From contig CAWIEK010000016.1 in NCBI GenBank assembly GCA_963835065.1, positions 120,329-184,328 on the forward strand: a stretch of 64,000 nucleotides of DNA. The letters run 5' to 3'. Every line of letters starts with the position of its first letter. The stretch's first letter is position 1. The position numbers were made by a program, and so were the translations under genes. The notes under the pieces were generated by a model, which saw only the letters and a list, made by a program, of their open reading frames with translations, made no database searches and had not been told where the DNA came from. This document shows, piece after piece, positions 1,380 through 56,065 of this stretch. Source of the stretch: an uncultured Chthonomonadaceae bacterium. Lineage in GTDB: Bacteria; Armatimonadota; Chthonomonadetes; Chthonomonadales; Chthonomonadaceae.

Positions 1380-3998
1380 ATGGCATTTCCGGGCAAAGCG
1401 ACCAAAGATTTTTTTATCAGTTACAACCAGAAAGATCAGCACTGGGCTGAATGGGTTGCCTGGGAACTGGAAGAAGCGGGCTATACGGCGATTGTGCAGG
1501 CGTGGGACTTTGGGGCGGGCAGCAACTTCGTCGTGGAAATGGATGAGGCCGCCAAAAACGCCGAACGGACGCTGGCGCTGTTGTCGCCGACGTATATCGC
1601 CTCCATTTTCACGCGCCCCGAATGGGCGGCGGCATTTGCGGACGACCCGACCAGCGTGAATCGCAAACTGATCCCCATTCGCGTGGAAGAGTGCGAACTG
1701 ACCGGGCTGCTGCGGCAGATCGTGTACATTGATCTTGTCGGCAAGGAGGAGCAGGACGCCCGCGAAATCCTACTGGCGCAGATCAAGGTCACGGAACGCG
1801 CCAAGCCGGCCACGCGCCCCTCATTCATGGGCAGCCGCAAGCCGGAAGTACAGGCGGTTGTTGCCGTAACCCCGTCCGCGCCCGGCGCGGAAAGTTCCCG
1901 CCCCGGTTTCCCGACCGCCAATGCGCCGTTTCAAGTGCCGTATCCGCGCCTCGCCTTTTTCACGGGGCGAGACGATCAACTGAATGCGCTGCATCAGGCG
2001 CTTATCGGGGGCGGGCGTACCACCGCGATACAGGCGCTTACCGGATTGGGTGGCATCGGCAAAACGCAAATGGCCGTTGAGTATGCGTACCAGTACCGGG
2101 AAGAATACAGCGCGATCTTATGGGCGCGGGCCGAAAACGAGCAGCAATTAAAGACGGACTTTGTTGGTATCGCCAAATTGCTGGACCTGCCGGAGCAGGA
2201 CGCGCCGGATCAGGACGAAACCCGCGATGCGGTGAAGCAGTGGCTTGCCTGCAACGAAAAGTGGCTGCTGATACTGGATAACGTGGACGCGCCGGCTGCC
2301 GTGAAACCGTTTCTGCCCGTGATTCACAGTGGCTGCGTACTGCTGACAACGCGCTCACAGGACGTACGCGCGCTGGGGATCGCCATGCCGCTGACCTTGC
2401 CGGAACTGTCGCCGAACGAAGCGCAAGCCTTTCTGCTGAAAAGCACCGGGCGCGAAAACGCCGAGCCGCAAGAGTGCGCGGCGGCAAAACAATTAGGCGT
2501 GGAATTGGGCGGGCTGCCACTCGCGCTGGAACAGGCGGCGGCATACGTCGGGCAAAACGACACGCCGTTTCAAAGCTACCTCAAATCTTTTAAGAAGCGC
2601 CGCCTGGCCCTCCTTAATGCGCAGGACCCCGTACAGGGCGATTATGCCCATTCGGTCGCTACGACATGGGACATCAATTTTCAGGTCATACAGCGCAAAT
2701 CCCCGGCATCGGTAGAACTGCTCAACCTGAGCGCGTTTCTTGCCCCGGAACGGATTCCGCTGGAACTGCTCATCAAATCTGCTGCGCTGCTTGGGCCTAA
2801 ACTGGAAGACGCGCTGGATGGAGCCGAAGAAGACGAACTGGTTCTGGACGATCTGCTGCTGCCCCTGACGCGCTACTCGTTGGCGCATCGTCAGCGTCAG
2901 TCCAACAGCTACGACGTTCACCGGCTGGTGCAGGCCGTGACGCGCCAGAATATGGACGACGCGCAGCGCGAATTGTGGACGGAGCGGGCCGTGTGTGCGG
3001 TCAGCCAATCGTTCCCCGAAGCGACGGTTGAAAATTGGCCGGCTTGCGAGCGGCTGTTGTCCCACGCCCTGATTTGCGCCGACCACATTGCGGCGGAAGG
3101 GTATGAATTTGAACCCGCTGTAGCGCTGCTGATTCAACTGGGCAATTATCTGTATGACCGCGCGCACTACGCCCTTGCCGAACCACTGATGGCGCGGGCG
3201 TTGGCCCTGCGGGAAAAAACGCTGCCCGCCAACGATCCCCAAATCGCCGAGCGCTGCATCAATCTGGCGGTGGTGTATTACCGTCAGCAGCGGTATGCGG
3301 AAGCGGAAGACTTGTACACTCGCGCGCTTCATATTTCGGAGGAGCATTACGGCCCAGAACATCCCGATGTTGCGTACTGCTTGAACAATCTGGCCGTGCT
3401 TTACATGGATCAGAATCGGTACGAGGAAGCGGAACCTTTATATCTTCGCGCCCTACACATACACGAAACCGCGCTCGGCCCCAATCATCAGCATACTGCC
3501 ACAAGTCTGAATAATCTGGCGCTGCTGCTGCAGCATCAGGGACGCTTGCGGGAAATGGAGCCGCTGTACCGCCGCGCCTATCGCATCGTGGACAAGACGC
3601 TCGGCCCCGAACACCCGGATACCGCCATGATCCTGAATAATCTGGCCGAACTTTACGAGCAGTTGAACCGCTATGTGGAAGCGGGGATGCTGTACCGCAG
3701 AGCGCTTGGCATTTTAGAAAAAGTATGTGGCGCGGAGCATCCCTTTGTCGCCTACGTGGTGGCGCATCTGGCCGGGCTGTATGATGAGCAGGGGAAGTAC
3801 GATGAATCGGAAGCGCACTACTGCCGCGCCCTGTCCATTTTCACCAACATTCTGGGCTGTGACCACAAGGAAACCTCGCAGTGCCGCGACAAGTACACGG
3901 CCCTGCTGCGCTCCCTGGGGCGCGACGACGAGGCCGACACGCTCACGCAAAACGCGCAAATCGTGGTGCAGACGCGAGAAAGCGCAGTGCGGCGATAG
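1380..3998 (+). CDS. TIR - NB-ARC (STAND NTPase) - TPR protein (NLR-like)
   Basis: DFFISY TIR start with TRPEW glutamate; Walker A GLGGIGKT, Walker B LLILDNVD, GLPLAL; kinesin-light-chain-type TPRs (HPDVAYCLNNLA); GAAGGAG RBS. Confidence 0.92.
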   Translation: MAFPGKATKDFFISYNQKDQHWAEWVAWELEEAGYTAIVQAWDFGAGSNFVVEMDEAAKNAERTLALLSPTYIASIFTRPEWAAAFADDPTSVNRKLIPIRVEECELTGLLRQIVYIDLVGKEEQDAREILLAQIKVTERAKPATRPSFMGSRKPEVQAVVAVTPSAPGAESSRPGFPTANAPFQVPYPRLAFFTGRDDQLNALHQALIGGGRTTAIQALTGLGGIGKTQMAVEYAYQYREEYSAILWARAENEQQLKTDFVGIAKLLDLPEQDAPDQDETRDAVKQWLACNEKWLLILDNVDAPAAVKPFLPVIHSGCVLLTTRSQDVRALGIAMPLTLPELSPNEAQAFLLKSTGRENAEPQECAAAKQLGVELGGLPLALEQAAAYVGQNDTPFQSYLKSFKKRRLALLNAQDPVQGDYAHSVATTWDINFQVIQRKSPASVELLNLSAFLAPERIPLELLIKSAALLGPKLEDALDGAEEDELVLDDLLLPLTRYSLAHRQRQSNSYDVHRLVQAVTRQNMDDAQRELWTERAVCAVSQSFPEATVENWPACERLLSHALICADHIAAEGYEFEPAVALLIQLGNYLYDRAHYALAEPLMARALALREKTLPANDPQIAERCINLAVVYYRQQRYAEAEDLYTRALHISEEHYGPEHPDVAYCLNNLAVLYMDQNRYEEAEPLYLRALHIHETALGPNHQHTATSLNNLALLLQHQGRLREMEPLYRRAYRIVDKTLGPEHPDTAMILNNLAELYEQLNRYVEAGMLYRRALGILEKVCGAEHPFVAYVVAHLAGLYDEQGKYDESEAHYCRALSIFTNILGCDHKETSQCRDKYTALLRSLGRDDEADTLTQNAQIVVQTRESAVRR

Positions 3999-7735: not shown

Positions 7736-7989
7736 CGGAACGCTGCCTTTCTCCCACAAACCTGTGGGATACGATGTCACGAAGTCCTCATTATCATGGT
7801 GATGTGATTTGGACTGCAGGACCTAATGATCCATGCGCAATAAGGAGAGGCCCGCCGACGCCTGAAAATACAATGGGGATGGAAAAAAGCCTCTCGTCGG
7901 CAAACATTTAGATGCGCCGACCCTATTGAGTGACAAATCACGCGAAAAATGGCATACTGTGCAAACAAAATGGATGCTGAAAACTACAA

Positions 7990-25680: not shown

Positions 25681-25960
25681 ACGAAAATATCCTCACCCTC
25701 AAATCTGCGGACTAACGCTGTCCGCAGCAGAACCAACCAGAATGTCCTTCGTACTATATTCCCATTTGTCTGCTGTTTTAGCCGGAACACTGATACTTTC
25801 ATGCAGTCTCTCCTTTTGTTTCCGTCCTTTGATGAGTCAAACCTAAAATTGTGTTTTTTTCTACTCCTGCCGGGAACGTCGCGCTTTCATGGAATGGTGT
25901 GCCTCCTGCCGGAGTGTATCCGGCTTCGTACCGGTTTGCCCCGTTTGCCGCAAGCCTTCG

Positions 25961-26153
25961 ACCCTCATCCGGCCTTCGGCCACCTTCTCCCTGCAAGGGA
26001 GAAGGCCAATGTGTTCAATGGGCAAGTTGAACAAGAGATAAGGGAGCCGATAAACAAGCGCTACGCATAAAACAAACCCTTAACAAACGCACCCGATGAA
26101 CAGTTTAGCCTTCTCCCTTGCAGGGAGAAGGTGGCCGAAGGCCGGATGAGGGT
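25961..26153. mobile_element. REP/MITE-like element: perfect 46-bp inverted repeats with 101-bp spacer
   Basis: ACCCTCATCCGGCCTTCGGCCACCTTCTCCCTGCAAGGGAGAAGGC at 25961-26006 and its reverse complement at 26108-26153. Confidence 0.85.
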
Positions 26154-26451
26154 AGAACCTTCCGTTTCCCCCGCAGCAACCCCACCTTCAAGTACAATGC
26201 CAGAACTCCCACCACAAACTTTTTGTCGCGGCAACCTGCTTCATCGCTTCCCACTCTTGGCGTTTTTGCGTTCTCCTCGCTTTTCGTTCCGCTATGAGCC
26301 TCGTCTTGCCGCTTATGCCTATTGCTCTTCCCTATCCGAGTTTCCGGCGCTCAGGGCAATCCCCTCCTCATGTTCGCCATTCCTGACCGTCACTCCTGCC
26401 AACACCGCGCGAGGCATTTTAAATTCAAGGCAGTTATGCGATTGAGTGCCG

Positions 26452-26570
26452 CCAAAAATTGAAAATCCCCATTTGAACATAACAAGCGTCCTCCAAACGC
26501 GCTATTCTAATCAAAATTTTCGCGTCCGCAGGACGCTTGCACTTTCCTGCCGGGGATTTTCAATCCCCGG
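26452..26570. repeat. REPIN-like element copy A
   Basis: 49 bp (26522-26570) identical to 34834-34882; degenerate inverted copy upstream. Confidence 0.85.
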
Positions 26571-26607
26571 AACCATCTAAAAAAGAGCCAGACAACGCGA
26601 AAAAAGC

Positions 26608-26635
26608 GAAACCTTTGCCCTCTTCACTCTGTCTA
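26608..26635 (+). promoter_or_regulatory. ECF-sigma-type promoter
   Basis: GAAACC-N16-TGTCTA; same architecture at 55524-55551. Confidence 0.6.
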
Positions 26636-26639
26636 TACA

Positions 26640-26880
26640 GTACAAATGTCTACTATACAGAGACGAAGGTTGAACGTTGGTAGTTCCTATCAACTATCAA
26701 CTATCAACTATCAACTTAAGAAGGGAGGTGCCAGTCCTATGTTTCACCCCTCCCGTCCGCCCTGACGCTGCCGAGGTCACGACGCCTCTCTCCTACAATT
26801 TGACACAACGAGACATCGGGCTGGAAGCGCTGTATTGCCAAGATTTCGACGATGCCTCTACATACCCTTTTTCTTTTCCC
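26640..26880 (+). ncRNA. Candidate sRNA/leader RNA copy 1 (unidentified family)
   Basis: About 125-nt core nearly identical to 55693-55823; hairpins, U-rich end, upstream ECF-type promoter. Confidence 0.55.
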
Positions 26881-27024
26881 ATTTCGAGGTCCCGGCTCTG
26901 AACATAGTACGGAAAACTTACTTGTATGGGGTATGTTAAATATGTTCAATAATGTTTATTTACTCGCGCAAAGATACGCTGTCCAGGGATGCAGGTACAA
27001 GCCTGTCAAGGGAGGAGTGAGATC

Positions 27025-27605: not shown

Positions 27606-28139
27606 ATGTTCCGTGAAGACAAAACCACACAGATGGCCGCGCGCTTCCTGCAATTAGCCGGAAAACGACTTCCGTACATCCAATTGCTGAAACTGCTTTA
27701 CCTTGCGGATAAGCAAATGCTCACTCAGCACGGAAAACCAATCACATACGACCGTTGGTATGCGATGAAATACGGCCCGGTGCTGAGTTCGACCTATGAT
27801 CTCATTAAGGGAAATAATCAATCCGAATACTGGTCAGATTACATCCAAACTGCGAACTATGACGTGGTACTTTGCAGCGACCCCGGCTCTGATGCTCTCT
27901 CGGTAACAGAAGACCGCATTATCGAAGCAGTGTTTGAAGAATACAAAGATCGCAACTGGCAGCAGATGGTTGATGTTACGCATCAATTGCCTGAGTGGGA
28001 GAATTCAGGCAGCGCCTCGAAGGAAATAACCTACGAGGAAGTGCTTCAGATAGAAGGTTTCGACAAAGAAGACATTGACAACATTCTGGACAATATACGT
28101 GTTCAAAATGATGTACATCTTGTTCTGGAGACGTTGTAA
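27606..28139 (+). CDS. Panacea/SocA (DUF4065) family antitoxin
   Basis: LLKLLYLAD, PITYD, AMKYGPV, THQLPEW. Confidence 0.88.
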   Translation: MFREDKTTQMAARFLQLAGKRLPYIQLLKLLYLADKQMLTQHGKPITYDRWYAMKYGPVLSSTYDLIKGNNQSEYWSDYIQTANYDVVLCSDPGSDALSVTEDRIIEAVFEEYKDRNWQQMVDVTHQLPEWENSGSASKEITYEEVLQIEGFDKEDIDNILDNIRVQNDVHLVLETL

Positions 28140-28549
28140 TGGCGTCTTTTCAGGCAGGCGACACTTTCCTTCTTGGTGGGTTGGGCGGATTGGATGCAAA
28201 ACTGCACTTGTTCGTCGTGGTTTGTGACCCCGCCGGAAACCCGTTGACGATCCTTGCCGTTCCATTCAACACTGTTACCTCCACTACGGACACAACACTA
28301 ATTCTTGAACCTGGGGAACATCCCTTCATCAACCGCAAAACGGCAGTAAGCTTCGACCTCCTGATGGAAATTGAGGTTGATAAGCTGGCTAAACTAGAAC
28401 AACTGTCTGCGTCTGGTCAGGCTAACAAGTTTCAGCGCCATTCCCCCGCCTCGGATGATCTTCTCAAACGCATTATTGAGGGTGCCTTGACTTCTGATCT
28501 CACGCCTAAAGCGATGGTGAAAGCTCTGAAAGCAAGACTCGAATTGTAG
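28139..28549 (+). CDS. Putative toxin partner, PemK/MazF-like fold
   Basis: TAATG coupling; GDTF, HLFVV, LEPGEHPFI motifs. Confidence 0.6.
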   Translation: MASFQAGDTFLLGGLGGLDAKLHLFVVVCDPAGNPLTILAVPFNTVTSTTDTTLILEPGEHPFINRKTAVSFDLLMEIEVDKLAKLEQLSASGQANKFQRHSPASDDLLKRIIEGALTSDLTPKAMVKALKARLEL

Positions 28550-55189: not shown

Positions 55190-55523
55190 CGGAACATCCT
55201 CAAGGGGGGAGGGTTGCATTTGCAGCGGGAGCGCCAAAGGTGGGGAACCTTCACACTATATTATGCCTCATTTCTTTCCGAATTCCCGCCGCCGTTCCAT
55301 TCTTTCCAGAGCCGGCGCCTCTAAAATGCTCAACACGTATCCCGTCGTAGTTCATTCGCCCCTAAGTAGCCCGTTGGTGTAAGTTCGTAGGTTTTCGAGA
55401 TTGAACTTATACGAAGTTTGGCCTTCGGTTTACTTAGTCTGCGCCTGCTCCCTCCTCCAGGTTGCCTAATCCAAAAAGAACACAAAAAAAGTAGAAAAAT
55501 ATCGGGTTAAACAGCAGAAATAA

Positions 55524-55551
55524 CGAACCTTCTCTGCATCCATCTCGTCTA
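55524..55551 (+). promoter_or_regulatory. ECF-sigma-type promoter
   Basis: CGAACC-N16-CGTCTA. Confidence 0.6.
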
Positions 55552-55553
55552 AA

Positions 55554-55823
55554 GTACATACCAGTCTACTAATGATCTGCGAACTAGCCAGGTGGCGGGA
55601 CGTTGAACGATCATAGTTCCTATCAACTATCAACTAAATCAAAAACCTATCAACTAACCCAGAAGGGAGGCGCTGGAAGATGCCTGTATTTTCCTCCCGT
55701 TCGCCCTGACGCTGCTGAGGTCACGACGCCTCTAACTCTACAACTTGACACAACGAGACATCGGGCTGGAAGCGCTGCATTGCCAAGATTTCGACGATCT
55801 CTCTACATACTCTTTTTCTTTTT
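55554..55823 (+). ncRNA. Candidate sRNA/leader RNA copy 2
   Basis: See copy 1. Confidence 0.55.
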
Positions 55824-56065
55824 CCGTCTACAAGCCCCCGCCCTGCCATTTTTTCTGAGTTCCGAAACCATCCCACCGCATCAGGCGGACTTGAAACACG
55901 CCTTCCTGCAGCTCAAAGCAATCCTTCCATCCTGTAATACAGCACATTGAAGGTCAAATGCCCTTTTCATAGCAGGGTGTATCGCATTGCACAGTCGCGC
56001 TGTTTCCTAATTCACAGGTGCGCCTCCTTCTTTCGGAGTAGACTTATACCCGAAGGAGGCACTCT

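Follow-up and report, generated by a model that had tools for sequence, protein, structure and literature searches.

Arrest peptides are known as leaders present in one copy and controlling the gene that follows, whereas MITEs are known as passive shells that decay. Correia elements, bcr1 and the cuckoo/CcsR sRNAs resemble the element described here in being short units, dispersed or multicopy, that are transcribed or bear a promoter; to our knowledge, none of them has a selected micro-ORF or island-border polarity. In the sections of PMC10951233 drawn on here, the strong stalling motif R/HxPP is cited, peptidyl-RAP-tRNA occupies the P site at the stall, and the known RAPP stalling requires a proline in the A site. 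According to the sections of PMC10987492 used here, the stop codon occupies the A site when NSP-stop and NAP-stop peptides stall.

The window, a stretch of 64,000 nucleotides, comes from an 8.0-Mb genome of an uncultured Chthonomonadaceae bacterium (G000), which was analyzed together with those of two sister species of the same genus (G001 and G002). The original prediction had described a two-copy element in the window. Every feature that it listed was found at its position in both copies, far beyond chance, and the GAGACATCG/CGATNNCTC stem, the shared core and the T tract were confirmed in both. The copy count was too low: G000 carries 162 core copies.

Copy 1 lies on the plus strand. Phased A-tracts (26579..26606), defined from a profile over 145 copies and which we take to be UP-element-like, precede an ECF-type promoter, AACC-N16-GTCTA (26610..26635). 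A second GTCTAC with a short 5' hairpin (26648..26664) begins 11-16 nt past the -10 box and is likely near the RNA start. The CTATCAA repeats that follow (26687..26715) are optional, many copies being without them. Next come the Shine-Dalgarno sequence AGAAGGGAGG (26719..26728), the micro-ORF MFHPSRPP-stop (26739..26765) and, 7 nt past the stop codon, the hairpin P1, GAGGUC-ACGAC-GCCUC (26773..26788). The 3' domain, an imperfect hairpin that ends at TCTACATA (26810..26864), contains the near-invariant apex GCGCUGYAUUGCCA (26827-26840). A decayed right ISAs1-type inverted repeat, with 5 mismatches in 19 positions by eye, lies on the minus strand at 26882..26900; the left ISAs1-type end was looked for at this copy and not found. 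REP-like inverted repeats adjoin copy 1 at 25945-26160 and 26523-26572.

Copy 2 lies in a 539-bp MITE (55307-55845) with a 10-bp target duplication, which the original prediction did not include. The left target-site duplication CCATTCTTTC (55297..55306) is followed on the plus strand by the left terminal inverted repeat (TIR; 55307..55325), the ECF-type promoter (55526..55551), the Shine-Dalgarno sequence and micro-ORF (55661..55709; AGAAGGGAGG at 55661, MPVFSSRSP-stop at 55680-55709), and P1, a CAAC linker and the 3' domain (55717..55809; apex at 55772-55785). A degenerate right TIR on the minus strand (55827..55845) and the right target-site duplication CCATTTTTTC (55846..55855), identical to the left at 9 of 10 positions, close the element. 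Elsewhere in the window, a solo ISAs1-type inverted repeat lies on the minus strand at 7907-7925 with no partner, cassette or transposase nearby; the genome has approximately 8 such solo repeats.

The order of parts is common to the family: phased A-tracts, AACY-N16/17-GTCTA, a second GTCTAC 11-16 nt on, the optional CTATCAA linker, a strong Shine-Dalgarno sequence and the micro-ORF, followed by P1, a CAAC-rich linker, the 3' domain with its apex, a sharp end at TCTACATA and a T tract. Copies cease to be homologous within ~25-50 nt downstream, and on the upstream side the homology fades raggedly across 150-350 nt. The promoter, which we presume to be of the ECF type from its consensus, was matched strictly in 109 of 162 copies, with 209 matches across the whole genome. 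A promoter HMM gave 159 matches in G000, 157 attached to a core and 2 as solo modules. The genome has 50 sigma-70 region-4.2 matches over the cut-off. Among 46 ECF loci scanned, that at C22:59712 (L193) has a matching promoter approximately 100 nt before the likely start, a result within chance. This ECF sigma gene (L193:967-1692), preceded by its own AACC-N16-GTCTA match, is a weak lead as candidate driver of the element. One subfamily of G001 copies (L089-L091, L093, L094) is without the ECF motif and has CACAACATATAGT, which we take to resemble an NrdR box, ~150-250 nt upstream of the micro-ORF; its longer ORFs have GTG, TTG or CTG starts and end in RPP-stop.

The 162 copies in G000 were obtained by blastn of the core (107-137 aligned nt, 80-100% identity), and an HMM search returned the same 162 with no further relic. 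Of 68 genomes of the class, a covariance model matched 3, which belong to one genus: G000, G002 (at least 47 copies) and G001 (13 copies); it gave no match in 150 further genomes sampled from the phylum. A pattern scan of a species collection found at least 34 loci and, among the matches listed, all were from two Chthonomonadaceae records; scans of viral and metagenome sequences gave 0 matches. The original prediction recognized no riboswitch or ribozyme in the element and, indeed, Rfam 15 gave 0 matches in the window at the gathering score and none at E ≤ 1 for the core of 4 loci. Its suggestion of a new sRNA family gains support from this result and from conservation in three species, the transcript itself being predicted. 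No description of the element was found in the open-access literature that was searched. Overall, the data show a genus-restricted, relic-poor, spaced and polarized family of up to 162 units, each with promoter, micro-ORF and conserved tail, partly in ISAs1-type MITE shells.

The micro-ORF comprises 8-11 codons and ends R/H-x-P-stop. Among 221 copies in the three species, 6 could not be anchored, leaving 215 to be scored. The stop codon lies 10 nt before P1 in 210 of these (157/162 in G000, 42/42 scored in G002 and 11/11 scored in G001), and TGA, TAA and TAG are all used. Proline occupies position -1 in 208 of 210 micro-ORFs, encoded by all four of its codons. At position -3, 198 have Arg or His, 11 have Leu and 1 has Gly; 11 copies end L-P-P-stop, not R-x-P-stop. 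The distance from ATG to stop is divisible by three in 146 of 160 copies. For distinct ATG-stop alleles whose length is not 24 nt, 26 of 37 are in frame (p = 5e-6 versus 1/3). The micro-ORFs of G001 include longer versions, such as MPTRTPRDGLYSRPP-stop. Thus, the micro-ORF is under selection as a peptide, and the copies show selection on the promoter, ATG, Pro-stop and apex. A longer frame, PPVRPDAAEV..., whose conservation would have spoken against the micro-ORF, is not conserved: it is open in only part of the copies (131/162, 11/42 and 5/11), and the length of the linker varies modulo three.

We propose, with a probability of roughly 0.55, that ECF-driven transcription is combined with a ribosome parked at R-x-P-stop before P1. 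Each unit would be transcribed from its ECF-type promoter into an RNA of ~200-250 nt; a ribosome would load at the Shine-Dalgarno sequence, translate the 8-11 codons and park at R/H-x-P-stop, where it would present the invariant apex. A minority of copies sit in ISAs1-type MITE shells, and the family is likely homogenized by gene conversion. The termination stall is suggested by analogy with the NSP-stop and NAP-stop stalls, as described in the cited sections of PMC10987492. That R-x-P before the stop is an arrest signal, as first suggested from the two window copies, gains support from its conservation in three species, the stalling itself being predicted. Several observations weigh against a parked ribosome: the frame is without the A-site proline that known RAPP stalling needs in the account of PMC10951233 used here, the eleven L-P-P-stop copies depart from the motif, and the 3' domain folds no better than shuffled sequences.

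A further point against it is that avoidance of R-[SPA]-P-stop at the ends of host genes, which at first looked absolute (0/4667), was not significant with a proper control (Fisher p = 0.09-0.68). Separately, ORFs of at least 900 nt in G000 contain internal RAPP 3 times and RGPP 0 times, versus 78 for AAPP and 32 for ASPP, in counts that are not normalized; the rarity of RAPP and RGPP in this proteome is in line with host ribosomes sensitive to RxPP. Mimicry of a tRNA anticodon matched to the stop codon was rejected because, in G000, the apex is divided between C and T (75/87) whereas almost every stop is TGA.

Support for an RNA structure is only moderate. In an 18-pair structure evaluated on 27 copies, 99% of cells were paired, and both-side changes occurred in 3 pairs; these compensatory changes come mainly from one G001 subfamily. 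P1 has an A-U to U-A swap in a G001 subfamily, with 100% of cells paired. For the 3' domain, z-scores against shuffles ranged from +1.3 to -1.0 in 6 single copies. Of 168 columns across the 162 copies, 58 are invariant, next to columns in which as many as half of the copies differ. This constraint exceeds the needs of the fold and points to sequence-specific recognition, although a role at the level of DNA also fits. Given the weak fold of the 3' domain and the concentration of compensatory changes in one subfamily, the invariant bases could act as DNA. An antisense target of the apex was searched for, and the three matches outside the copies all lie in apparently coding DNA. The ribosome-binding site had been predicted to be sequesterable by a CCTCCC within the micro-ORF. 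The pairing is possible, as 95 of 158 copies contain CCTCCC and the Shine-Dalgarno sequence is paired in the MFE fold of 151 of 158, but it is not selected: in only 12 of 146 copies does the real ORF form a more stable fold with the Shine-Dalgarno sequence than its shuffled versions do.

A hallmark of an ISAs1-derived MITE, TIRs shared with an autonomous IS, was found for 16 of 162 copies. These have both ends of the 19-bp TIR, copy 2 among them; the other 146 do not. Seven of 11 end-to-end TIR pairs have the 10-bp target duplication. The TIRs of copy 2 match ISAs1 elements of G002, where PF13808 (ISAs1) elements of 1243 and 1273 bp end in the identical TIR. For the MITE at C41:183020-183485 of G000, G002 has the empty allele with a single copy of the target. 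Nevertheless, ISAs1 MITE origin does not account for the whole family: 125 of 162 copies are of type A, with neither TIR nor junction duplication, and none of the 13 G001 copies has a TIR. On the basis of these copies, the cassette appears older than the shell, and MITE transposition leaves the spread of most copies unexplained, a difficulty for the parked-ribosome reading too.

The unit could instead be a selfish repeat, a cassette that serves its own spread and retention as MITE cargo and through conversion, possibly with self-immunity; we think this possible but lean against it. In this reading, the promoter and micro-ORF would produce, or shield, an RNA on which mobility depends, and the host would gain nothing. 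The 19-bp TIR, the duplications, the G002 ISAs1 partner and the clean empty site all speak for such a repeat, as do the copy numbers of 162, at least 47 and 13. They are offset by the small share of copies with both TIRs, by the scarcity of relics, which is unlike a MITE family, and by the fact that no ISAs1 transposase was found in G001 or in G000 (92% complete). Moreover, ISAs1 transposition, catalyzed by DDE transposases, needs no RNA.

Several other routes to mobility were evaluated. RAYT/Y1 transposases, IS110, Y2 and tyrosine recombinases showed no consistent linkage with the element. An apparent second TIR type belongs to a separate REP-like inverted repeat, with 29 of 45 sites far from any copy. 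The GACGCTTGCACTTTCCTGCCGGG REP-like family has approximately 141 sites in the genome, which also encodes two RAYT-length Y1 transposases (C42, C51). A reverse transcriptase (RT) was rejected as mobilizer: it occurs in all 3 genomes that carry the element and in neither of 2 others, and it is unlinked to the element and without similarity to it. A retron ncRNA was likewise rejected. The RT genes are single-copy and unlinked (the nearest copies lie at ~6 and 10 kb), and no resemblance to the element is seen in the DNA upstream of the retron-like RT. This retron-like RT (476-481 aa; L105:1288-2718, L103, L104) is orthologous and single-copy in all three genus members and lies behind a SWIM/BRCT-like gene; a long hairpin of species-specific simple repeats replaces an evident msr-msd. 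In G000, a group-II-intron-like RT adjoins a Cas1-like ORF (L102:1270-2454 and 2622-3293), these names being given from sequence appearance.

We next consider how the copies are maintained. In G000, 158 of 162 haplotypes are distinct, and four gametes are present in 143 of 190 pairs of common sites. One triplet reads AGA in 153 of 162 G000 copies versus CTA or ATA in 39 of 46 G002 copies. At 10 sites whose 3' flank is common to both genomes, the 162 G000 copies were ranked by their likeness to the G002 copy. The one residing at the site held rank 4-101 and in no case the first; its own paralogues are closer to it. The family is likely homogenized by gene conversion or replaced in place. Relics are almost absent, comprising the 2 solo promoter modules and no extra cores. 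With respect to the preferred reading of a parked ribosome, such conversion raises the difficulty that constraint might act on a few source copies only and then spread.

The copies are also spaced. Only 4 of 105 gaps between neighbors are shorter than 10 kb versus 27 expected (0 of 2000 simulations as low), and close pairs are depleted in direct and inverted orientations, whereas a control repeat gave 29 versus 21 expected. This depletion resembles target immunity, which would suit a unit spreading for its own sake. In G002, 0 of 36 gaps are shorter than 10 kb, too few to test. A tandem duplication of ~1.1 kb (98%) at C30:36232-38486 in G000 includes an element copy and holds the only pair of copies less than 8 kb apart.

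The DNA on the two sides of the element differs, with accessory and defense genes upstream and core genes downstream. GC content is 55.6% upstream versus 58.4% downstream (n = 148, p = 1.5e-10); in random intergenic controls, the difference is close to zero. The nearest gene has the lower GC3 upstream in 116 of 153 copies (p = 4e-14) versus 54 of 104 for a control repeat, and the same holds for 12 of 14 TIR copies. The sign of the GC difference is the same in 13 of 13 G001 and 44 of 46 G002 copies, using windows that include some intergenic DNA. Of the 46 G002 copies, 15 have a G000 match on their upstream side and 36 on their downstream side, compared with 232 of 400 random windows. Among G001 and G002 copies with a G000 match, 27 match by the downstream flank only and 4 by the upstream flank only. 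The reverse test against a 1.6-Mb G002 block gave the same direction (10/155 upstream, 19/161 downstream), without significance (p = 0.12). There is no replichore bias (67 versus 67).

Pfam matches upstream (106 of 161 ORFs, E ≤ 1e-12) include Dam and N6/N4 methylases, NACHT (twice), Schlafen (twice), Uma2 (twice), DUF559, type I R, ResIII and SUKH-4. Those downstream (93 of 143 ORFs, at the stricter E ≤ 1e-20) are mainly housekeeping, such as SecA, RNase J, DAHP synthase, PGM and RapZ. Copy 1 of the window is an exception to this polarity, with small genes and a Panacea antitoxin downstream. This SocA/Panacea antitoxin (PF13274) and an ensuing 136-aa ORF without Pfam match, a possible toxin partner, lie at 27606-28549. 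The idea that cargo is carried upstream was dropped: lineage-specific DNA had a median of 1033 versus 95 bp, a difference that was not significant (n = 10).

Polarity in three species and the defense-type versus housekeeping division raise the possibility that the element marks places of gene flux at the level of DNA, its invariant 3' block being a recombination or protein-binding site that anchors the acquisition or replacement of accessory DNA upstream. The weak RNA folding and the finding that copies at shared sites are not closest relatives would fit as well. We nonetheless judge this improbable. Cargo-free MITE copies bounded by target-site duplications are polarized too (12/14), no partial copies occur at the far ends of islands, and no junction duplication was found in 128 copies tested. 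IS110 was found once only, in G002, and an IS91/ISCR Y2 transposase in 0 of 5 genomes, a result made uninformative by a control that also gave no match anywhere. A landmark in DNA also leaves selection on the peptide unexplained. Since the cargo-free MITE copies are polarized, capture is less likely than selection on orientation or a later gain of genes behind the promoter.

A bolder extension of the parked-ribosome reading, which we put forward tentatively and consider unlikely, is that of a genome-wide shutdown switch made of RNA only: one ECF sigma factor would fire ~160 promoters simultaneously, and the cell would be flooded with RNAs that trap ribosomes at R-x-P-stop. If true, the switch would serve dormancy or abortive infection. 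Conversion would keep its units intact, mutual exclusion would set their spacing, and they would stand where defense islands border other DNA.

The original prediction also raised two cis-acting readings, an arrest-peptide leader and a type I toxin-antitoxin-like unit. In their favor, a small hydrophobic ORF follows each window copy on the same strand. These ORFs are present (27025 and 56067) but coincidental: a small membrane ORF lies downstream of 2 of 161 copies versus 11 of 1500 control sites (p = 0.36), so no hydrophobic toxin ORF is tied to the RNA. For a leader, the next gene would have to be on the same strand, which it is in only 55 of 137 scored copies, and the genes downstream of different copies are unrelated to each other. 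Both readings are largely refuted, and we consider either one highly improbable.

The MITE shell alone is ordinary. As in ISAs1 MITEs, there is a shell of ~460 bp, a 19-bp TIR starting CAGGG, a 10-bp duplication, an autonomous partner in G002 and an empty site. The interior, in contrast, is unrelated to the IS, strongly constrained and almost without relics; the element occurs in a species without such shells (G001), and only a tenth of the G000 copies (16/162) have both ends. It differs from Correia elements, bcr1 and the cuckoo/CcsR sRNAs in having no Rfam match.

RAPP-like and RQH peptides and the NSP-stop and NAP-stop peptides, as presented in the cited sections of PMC10951233 and PMC10987492, share with the element a C-terminal R/H-[A/S/P]-P with proline in the P site. 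Relative to the RAPP-like peptides of those sections, the element has a stop codon in place of the A-site proline (198/210), and its peptide is 8-16 residues long, without localization signal and encoded in up to 162 copies. The arrangement of a RAPP-like uORF ahead of co-transcribed sec or yidC is not that of the element, whose same-strand genes (55/137) are unrelated. CreT RNA toxins, according to the portion of PMC8501985 used here, likewise have a strong Shine-Dalgarno sequence, a mini-ORF and a downstream stem-loop, and the element would similarly act through translation and not through a protein product. It differs from that portion's CreT in having no tandem rare codons, its four proline and four arginine codons varying freely, and in being multicopy with an ECF-type promoter; no CRISPR or antitoxin link was seen.

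If translated as predicted, the element would represent a new class of ribosome-holding small RNA, with copy number setting its dose. The family also provides over 200 natural variants of a termination-arrest motif of 8-11 residues, directly testable in vitro. What is new relative to the known systems is an arrest-like micro-ORF without a gene to control, intact in up to 162 copies that are spaced and oriented against foreign DNA.
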